IMG/VR virus record: IMGVR_UViG_3300045988_001600
Location: 1-20,380 of that record
Direction: 5' to 3' (one strand)
Source of the DNA: a virus
Lineage: Duplodnaviria > Heunggongvirae > Uroviricota > Caudoviricetes
DNA: 20,380 nt
Shown: in pieces, positions 14,754 to 15,224 of the stretch
Position numbering within the stretch: position 1 is the first letter of the stretch
Layout of the letters: the number at the start of each line of letters is the position of its first letter
Notes under the pieces: model-generated
The model's database searches: none
What the model was told of the DNA's origin: nothing
Seen by the model: the letters and a program-made list of their open reading frames with translations, nothing else
Program-made: the position numbers and the translations under genes

Positions 14754-14842
14754 CTTTGCAAATACCAGGAAAGTGCAAAAACCAAATATGTAGAATGCAA
14801 TATTCATCATATCTCTTTGCATAAATCCTCCGTAATGGATGG

Positions 14843-15136
14843 TTAGTTGCTGTCTTTTTTATATAGCTCCTTGAGCGTATCAAAGACAATTTTCTTAACC
14901 ATATCAGATTGTTGTTCTGCCATACGCTCTGCATCGTCAATGTAAACTGATGCAGAGCTTTGTTTAGTCAATGATTCTTCAATCGCTGCAATTATCTCAG
15001 AGTTCAGCGACCTGTTATTCATCTTCGCGCGCTGTTTAATTTTCTCGTGGAGTTCATGCGGAAGTCTCAAGTGAAACTGCGCCTCGTCGTATTTGCTGTA
15101 CATCCTTGATGCCTCACCAGTTGGGTGGAATGGCAT
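14843..15136 (-). CDS. mnt: Mnt-like ribbon-helix-helix repressor
   Basis: Minus-strand ORF. The core (AQFHLRLPHELHEKIKQRAKMNNRSLNSEIIAAIEESL ... DDAERMAEQQSDMVKKIVFDTLKELYKK) parallels P22 Mnt as recalled (PHFNFRMPMEVREKLKFRAEANGRSMNSELLQIVQDAL ... NDAERLADEQSELVKKMVFDTLKDLYKK). The true start may be the internal ATG at about 15103, giving 86 aa, close to P22 Mnt length. Confidence 0.8.
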   Translation of the reverse strand: MPFHPTGEASRMYSKYDEAQFHLRLPHELHEKIKQRAKMNNRSLNSEIIAAIEESLTKQSSASVYIDDAERMAEQQSDMVKKIVFDTLKELYKKDSN

Positions 15137-15224
15137 CGTAACCTACTGGATAAATACTCAATAGTACCATTTCGGTATGCAATCACATCATGGTTGCATC
15201 ATATCATTCGTTTGGAGTAATGAA
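15137..15224. promoter_or_regulatory. Divergent mnt / tailspike intergenic control region
   Basis: 88 bp between the divergent mnt and tailspike starts. Contains inverted repeats TACTcaatAGTA and ATGCAA-n12-TTGCAT, repeated ATCA motifs, and a GGAG ribosome-binding site 8 nt before the tailspike ATG. Promoter hexamers are not confidently assignable by eye. Confidence 0.35.

Follow-up and report, generated by a model that had tools for sequence, protein, structure and literature searches.

The gene 16–tailspike interval and its Mnt homolog

The stretch of DNA analyzed here (the window, 20,380 nucleotides) comes from a P22-like Escherichia/Shigella phage or prophage (Lederbergvirus) and represents its late region. 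A gene-16-like ejection gene on the plus strand is followed by a 471-bp gap, by a tailspike gene on the plus strand, and then, in minus-strand orientation, by gtrC, gtrB and gtrA. In near-identical E. coli prophages, the gene-16-like protein is labelled as a lytic transglycosylase or as a member of the P22-gp16 family. The gap, positions 14754–15224, is the precise interval between the gene-16-like stop codon (14753) and the true tailspike start, an ATG at 15225 that was set by alignment with P22 gp9 and is preceded by GGAG at 15214–15217. The features of this interval, and the two genes that bound it, are as follows:

12756–14753, plus strand: open reading frame for a gene-16-like DNA ejection protein; left edge of the variable ‘ant moron’ slot.
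14745–14822, minus strand: unannotated 25-aa hydrophobic ORF, MQRDMMNIAFYIFGFCTFLVFAKLF, recognized by conservation and codon statistics.
14827–14831, minus strand: GGAGG, the ribosome-binding site of the small ORF, read from the sequence.
14843–15103, minus strand: mnt homolog, 86 aa, with type C reading strand AQFHLRLP and RHH and tetramerization domains (Pfam, P22 alignment, PDB).
15108–15137, no strand assigned: GATGCC-N18-GGCATC, an inverted repeat of the mnt leader that recurs in every type-B and type-C lone-mnt leader.
15135–15161, minus strand: predicted Pmnt, with –10 TACGAT (15140–15135), –35 TTGAGT (15161–15156) and a 15-bp spacer, inferred from P22 architecture.
15163–15179, no strand assigned: predicted Mnt operator AGTACCATTTCGGTATG, core GTACC-N5-GGTAT (15164–15178), centered on 15171, from P22 Omnt register, conservation and uniqueness.
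15177–15199, no strand assigned: second palindrome, ATGCAATCA-N5-TGGTTGCAT, with 9-bp arms; perfect in IME10 and part of an Sf6-like tailspike upstream region.
15225–17039, plus strand: tailspike gene with a P22-type head-binding domain (Pfam Head_binding, 1.2e-55); right edge of the slot.

The minus-strand ORF in the gap (14843–15136) encodes 97 amino acids, but alignment with P22 Mnt and all relatives places the start at 15103, giving a protein of 86 amino acids; the N-terminal extension of the longer frame is unconserved and overlaps promoter-like sequence. The initial annotation had described an Mnt homolog transcribed divergently from the tailspike gene and about 90–120 bp away from it. 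The measured distance to the tailspike ATG is 121 bp from the 86-aa start and 88 bp from that of the 97-aa ORF, and profile searches bear out the family assignment. An N-terminal RHH domain matches Arc (PF03869, 5.7e-16, 58.5 bits against a cut-off of 20.4), and a C-terminal tetramerization coiled coil matches Repressor_Mnt (PF11423, 3.3e-14, residues 68–93). The PDB matches are 1MNT, the N-terminal structure of P22 Mnt (4.6e-20), and 1QEY, the C-terminal structure (1.5e-8). Identity to P22 Mnt is 50% over 80 residues. Alignment also confirms that the DNA-reading strand differs, with QFHLRLP here against HFNFRMP in P22; Gln, His and Arg occupy the positions of P22 Mnt His6, Asn8 and Arg10. We considered and rejected an antitoxin of a type II toxin-antitoxin system: HicB/FitA-like matches are weak (29.3 and 28.4 bits) and extend only over the shared RHH fold, the C-terminus is the Mnt coil, and neither PHROG nor NCBIfam has a family that matches the 25-aa ORF downstream.

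A tblastn search of the window, the complete genomes of Sf101 and IME10, and the closest E. coli prophage detected no arc, ant, sieA or KilA. Sf101 and IME10, which served for the whole-genome check, encode an Mnt that is 95% identical to that of the window and carry an identical operator. The canonical function might have been relocated, with arc or ant under an Mnt operator elsewhere, and a scan for ant-like genes and for such an arrangement found none in the window, Sf101 or IME10. The initial annotation's picture of mnt alone in the gap therefore stands as far as arc, ant and sieA are concerned, and fails in that a conserved 25-aa ORF is also there, after mnt. The locus lacks the arc and ant genes, transcribed from Pant under an Mnt operator, that make a P22-type immI region; it has the makeup of a lone-mnt ‘ant moron’, with mnt as the sole immI gene in the gene 16–tailspike slot and divergent from the tailspike gene.

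The gene is under purifying selection. Within the type, dN/dS is 0.12–0.23. When the DNA-binding domain is compared with those of Salmonella (VSe13), E. coli (JEP4) and Serratia relatives, dN/dS is ~0.05, with dN 0.13–0.16 and dS saturated. The motif DEAQFHLRL is constant in more than 20 protein clusters from Escherichia, Rahnella and Serratia that have many different C-terminal halves. A premature stop interrupts mnt in only one of 83 loci. A frameshifted mnt does occur in the closest E. coli relative, strain 401651 (L001 20444–20703; DNA 99% identical), so loss of mnt is tolerated in a resident prophage. Judged by its sequence, the gene is a functional Mnt-family repressor and not a decaying remnant.

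The same order of gene 16, mnt and tailspike occurs in phages IME10 and Sf101 and in many E. coli prophages, and at least 81 of 5,426 complete E. coli genomes carry the cassette at full length. Among 83 fetched loci with a window-type Mnt, 63 have the identical 121-bp mnt–tailspike spacing and none has arc or ant. Longer spacings are insertions of HNH-AP2 homing-endonuclease genes between mnt and the tailspike gene (L011 3327–3869, L029 3330–3869, L339/L340 3341–3850); in the window-type loci L011 and L029, the endonuclease gene follows the leftover start of the old tailspike gene (MSDIT...) and precedes a new tailspike gene. A scan of genome contigs returned only three loci, and a P0086 context look-up gave no match. 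Annotation of the gene is uneven. RefSeq phage records call Mnt a ‘partition protein ATPase’ (L002 3007–3300, L004 3520–3771), a misannotation propagated from PHROG 795, and in Sf101, IME10 and E. coli prophage records mnt is unannotated or misnamed, also as ‘Arc family DNA-binding protein’.

Lone mnt genes have been described before. The gene 16–tailspike slot was named the ‘ant moron’, and ST64T, ST104 and Para1 were found to hold only mnt plus one unknown gene there (Villafane et al., 2008; PMC2629481). The authors of the phage L genome paper wrote that a lone mnt ‘could have acquired another function or be a remnant’ (PMC8022706). The layout is thus already known from phages L, ST64T and ST104, and what is new here is the operator specificity, a third class.

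A predicted operator and three specificity classes

The center of the predicted operator is ~43–45 bp upstream of where Pmnt is predicted to start and 54 bp from the tailspike ATG, also on its upstream side. The operator adjoins the –35 element of its own Pmnt, following CAAT (the –35 on the other strand), and so occupies the place that Omnt has with respect to Pmnt in P22. The string CAAT.GTACC-N5-GGTA(C/T)G is constant in nine type-C loci with diverged flanks from four genera (Escherichia, Salmonella, Serratia and Rahnella), and Rahnella-type loci have the perfect palindrome GTACC-N5-GGTAC. The core is present once in the window, against 0.03 copies expected from shuffles, and once in the complete Sf101 genome. 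Among the matches listed, all of the ~45 P22-like ones to the operator pattern have a type-C mnt on one side and a tailspike gene on the other. We looked for second copies of the operator and found none in the window or Sf101; an extra core match in IME10 and one in an E. coli prophage fall inside structural genes and look like chance.

Across relatives, the operator covaries with the reading strand while keeping one shared register after the CAAT of the Pmnt –35. Three specificity classes can be told apart:

Class A (P22, epsilon34, UPF_BP1): reading strand PHFNFRMP; operator AGGTCCACgGTGGACCT; full immI.
Class B (L, ST160, Gally): reading strand PQFNLRLP; operator AAGACCACnGTGGTCTT; lone mnt.
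Class C (window, Sf101, VSe13, JEP4, Serratia): reading strand AQFHLRL; operator GTACC-N5-GGTA(C/T), which is GTACC-N5-GGTAT in the window; lone mnt.

It had been proposed that the changed residues imply a different operator, and the predicted site at 15164–15178 agrees with this in being distinct from that of P22. At the sequence level, the locus has a palindromic operator by its own promoter that is matched to its reading strand. We regard 15163–15179 as the operator of the window Mnt, to which the protein would bind.

An exact 16-mer, GTACCGTTTCGGTATG, occurs twice, 515 bp apart, in six other viral contigs. They represent an unrelated phage with no Mnt nearby, and we treat the match as probable coincidence. 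There (L106 7579–7594 and 8094–8109; also L113, L151, L167 and L204) the 16-mer, which equals the JEP4-type operator exactly, sits in a repeated ~35-bp element before small genes.

The promoter that would serve mnt is less certain than the operator. Its –10, TACGAT, is constant in the nine diverse type-C loci, and the spacer in relatives is 17 bp; a consensus promoter scan called no Pmnt at 15135–15161. The poor 15-bp spacer of this hand-assigned promoter leaves the transcription start uncertain, and autoregulation could therefore activate or repress. An alternative leftward promoter, CTGACA-17-AATGAT (15231–15203), which overlaps the tailspike start, was set aside: it scores 9/12, which is chance level, and is unconserved in P22-type upstream regions. 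The inverted repeat of the leader overlaps both the predicted –10 and the mnt ribosome-binding site. Because its 5' arm overlaps the –10, the repeat may not be transcribed. The repeat may act as an RNA hairpin or as a protein-binding site; we set aside a leader hairpin acting as a regulatory RNA, the outer stem being invariant with one compensatory pair only. The second palindrome comes directly after the operator, and a similar TGCAAT...GTTGCATC element is found upstream of the tailspike gene in Sf6 and BTP1. TTGCAT/ATGCAA motifs lie on both sides of the mnt cassette and may be module-boundary sequences.

The sequences around the operator also bear on how the lone cassette relates to immI. 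Lone cassettes of types B and C have in common a longer mnt leader with GATGCC...GGCATC, unlike full immI. The Pant –35 TTGACA is missing from lone cassettes and kept by full immI regions; type-B full immI regions, found by a scan with the type-B operator, have this consensus –35 together with a short mnt leader. At the position of the P22 Pant –10, lone cassettes read TATATC, TGTATC or TGCATC (type B) and TAAATA or CAAATC (type C). The lone cassette is therefore not simply P22 immI minus arc and ant, since its leader is different and longer and TTGACA is missing. Of the initial annotation's view that immI is reduced here to mnt, the absence of arc, ant and sieA and the presence of a true Mnt homolog hold up; a simple arc-ant deletion does not, and the arrangement is not a new one.

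What the lone Mnt may regulate

We think it slightly better than an even bet that the locus is a self-contained autoregulated cassette heading a short leftward operon. Under this proposal, the window Mnt would be an RHH repressor, a tetramer of two dimers with a re-specified DNA-reading strand, that binds one cognate operator, GTACC-N5-GGTA(T/C), at its own leftward promoter. The cassette, promoter plus repressor, would span ~14823–15179 in the variable gene 16–tailspike slot, and its direct target would be its own leftward transcript, probably expressed in lysogens and comprising mnt and whatever comes after it. In the window, this transcript would carry mnt and the 25-aa membrane-peptide ORF and would likely read through, running antisense to the gene 16 terminus. 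The window lacks the rightward half of the P22 region (Pant, the Arc operator, arc, sar and ant), which is why we regard the unit as self-contained. Binding to DNA, the direction of autoregulation, the start point of the transcript, its expression in lysogens and the joint transcription of mnt and the small ORF are all steps that we infer. Vershon et al. reportedly found in 1987 that P22 Mnt represses Pant and stimulates Pmnt.

Divergent type-C loci offer a view of what may follow mnt, as co-oriented genes there overlap the mnt stop codon. The genes after mnt in relatives are:

Rap1a-like gene: L340, L341 and L344, in two contexts.
ClpP-like gene: L342.
Gene for a 106-aa unknown protein: L339.

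In Rahnella/Serratia-type prophages, the Rap1a-like genes (L340 4258–4620, L344 1079–1420) belong to a type VI secretion immunity family, and the ClpP-like gene (L342 4264–4800) encodes a protease. The Rap1a-like and ClpP-like genes are possible lysogenic-conversion cargo. Against a cargo reading, no co-oriented gene follows mnt in Sf101, L, JEP4 or VSe13, so cargo expression is not a general reason to keep mnt.

Four loci indicate that the role of the cassette is not the control of ant, since in them the lone cassette persists beside a separate immI-like set. L155, L132, L209 and L319 each have such a set upstream in addition to a lone mnt cassette with its operator by the tailspike gene; the lone cassette is of type C in L155, L132 and L209 and of type B in L319. 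The second set includes an ant homolog in L155 and L319, and only extra mnt-like and arc-like genes were detected in L132 and L209. The separate immI of L155 (7309–10417) is complete, with mnt-like genes, arc and ant, and its ant homolog is 85% P22-like. These four thus hold Mnt paralogs of different specificity.

In the window, the candidate downstream gene is the 25-aa ORF. Its ATG is 20 nt past the mnt stop codon, its GGAGG is 12–16 nt past that stop, no terminator lies between the two genes, and its 3' end overlaps the last 9 nt of gene 16. It is intact in 72 of the 83 related loci, where the nonsynonymous/synonymous ratio is 0.5 in frame and 1.0–1.4 out of frame. Homologs occur in the same place, antisense to the last gene 16 codons, in Sf6 (which has no mnt), IME10 and Gally, and a BTP1-type variant is present in 29 phage records, including L, ST64T, ST104, MG40 and g341c. 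The BTP1 and window ORFs share 8 of their first 14 residues, 6 of these 8 by different codons, and the homologs in Sf6, BTP1, L and ST64T show synonymous codon changes. A 23–25-aa ORF with GGAGG is also found at NC_005344 13549–13623 and at 14011–14082 of the BTP1 locus (L345), in both cases on the minus strand. Sf101 lacks the small ORF. Sf6 and BTP1 carry the ORF but no mnt, and in phage L the two are separated, so the link between them may be incidental.

In BTP1, the small ORF lies inside STnc6030. BTP1 lysogens make a strong leftward STnc6030 transcript over the same interval, which excludes superinfecting BTP1 (Owen et al., 2020; PMC7067206). In that study only ORFs longer than 60 aa were excluded for STnc6030; the escape SNPs all alter residues in the final part of gp16, and induction of the prophage is unaffected (PMC7067206). 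It is conceivable, though we would bet against it, that the mnt cassette sets the lysogenic level of the 23–25-aa peptide, and that the peptide, not antisense pairing, is the exclusion factor, blocking DNA delivery by way of the C-terminus of incoming gp16. A peptide that blocks DNA entry would fit both the gp16-residue escape mutations and the unaffected induction, because induction needs no injection step.

Another proposal, which we consider unlikely, is that the lone Mnt provides orphan immunity. The prophage Mnt would silence the Ant promoter of those superinfecting P22-like phages that share its specificity, which would keep incoming Ant from inactivating the resident repressor and inducing the prophage; the cis operator would serve autoregulation only. 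Diversification of repressor and operator into classes is typical of immunity systems, and pure autoregulation does not explain the diversification in specificity. The type-B operator AAGACCACnGTGGTCT is found in at least 56–57 lone cassettes and in at least 7–8 full mnt–operator–arc–ant regions with a consensus Pant –35; being common to both, it would let lone Mnts cross-repress circulating ant phages. For type B, orphan immunity is therefore plausible on sequence grounds. For type C, no operator was found beside arc or ant in ~130 loci (the 83 fetched loci, the ~45 among the matches listed and the nine divergent ones), nor in the tblastn matches from 50,697 phage records; the ratio seen for type B would predict ~5 ant-linked sites among the ~45 type-C matches listed.

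We give rather less weight still to regulation of the tailspike gene, in which Mnt at the operator would repress a vestigial Pant-like promoter in lysogens or roadblock late-operon read-through. The cassette always adjoins the tailspike gene, or a homing endonuclease gene plus the tailspike gene, whatever stands on its other side. Such adjacency would arise in any case, since a slot without arc and ant has mnt at its right-hand end. A consensus scan found no rightward sigma-70-like promoter between mnt and the tailspike gene, and neither the scan nor manual inspection of types B and C gave a convincing Pant-like promoter facing the tailspike gene, the –10 position being unconserved and TTGACA missing. 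In relatives with HNH insertions, over 500 bp separate the operator from the tailspike start in use. The earlier suggestion that the lone Mnt might regulate tailspike transcription thus found no support in the sequence, there being no rightward promoter.

That mnt is a non-functional leftover of immI, heading to decay after arc-ant loss, was raised as a possibility in the phage L paper (PMC8022706) and would suit the frameshifted E. coli copy and the one premature stop in 83 loci, but we hold it to be very improbable given the strong purifying selection, a reading strand constant across C-terminal variants and four genera, a conserved and co-evolved operator, and full-length genes in at least 81 complete E. 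coli genomes.

The role of the lone Mnt is a question that dates from the genome papers of phages L, ST64T and epsilon34, and it is narrowed here. The repressor is under selection, its co-evolved operator would form a third specificity class, and no antirepressor is present in the complete genomes; the cassette is kept by the tailspike gene despite a separate full immI, and it heads small accessory operons in relatives. The three natural protein/operator pairs lend themselves to the study of specificity change in beta-strand readers. A widespread small ORF within a published exclusion ‘ncRNA’ could alter the reading of the BTP1 system.

Relation to known systems

The window Mnt shares with P22 Mnt its RHH domain and C-terminal tetramerization coil, its size, its leftward orientation, its position between gene 16 and the tailspike gene, and the register of its predicted operator relative to the Pmnt –35. 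Two DNA-contact positions are changed (His6 to Gln, Asn8 to His), and the operator half-site is GTACC where that of P22 is GGTCCAC. The P22 immI region has Pant, an Arc operator, arc, sar, ant and sieA, none of which is found in the window, and the window leader is longer than that of P22 mnt, unrelated to it, and carries the conserved inverted repeat.

Phages L, ST64T, ST104, ST160 and SE1 (PMC2629481, PMC8022706) are closer in layout. Like the window, they have mnt as the sole immI gene, divergent from a tailspike gene ~121–135 bp away, the GATGCC...GGCATC type of leader, and a palindromic operator that is kept. They differ in belonging to the PQFNLRLP class with AAGACCACcGTGGTCTT and in having Salmonella, not E. 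coli or Shigella, as host. The 3' neighbor of mnt in phage L is orf62 with terminators, whereas in the window it is the 25-aa ORF and gene 16. Sf101, IME10 and many E. coli prophages have the same system as the window, with an identical operator and intergenic region, although Sf101 has another gene-16 allele.

BTP1 STnc6030 resembles the proposed window transcript in running leftward over the interval from the tailspike start to the end of gene 16 and in containing a homolog of the small ORF (PMC7067206). It differs in that BTP1 has no mnt, in that the published model is one of antisense RNA, and in that the promoter is inside the tailspike gene (PMC7067206). By analogy with expression in BTP1 lysogens, a leftward transcript may well run across the interval in the window.
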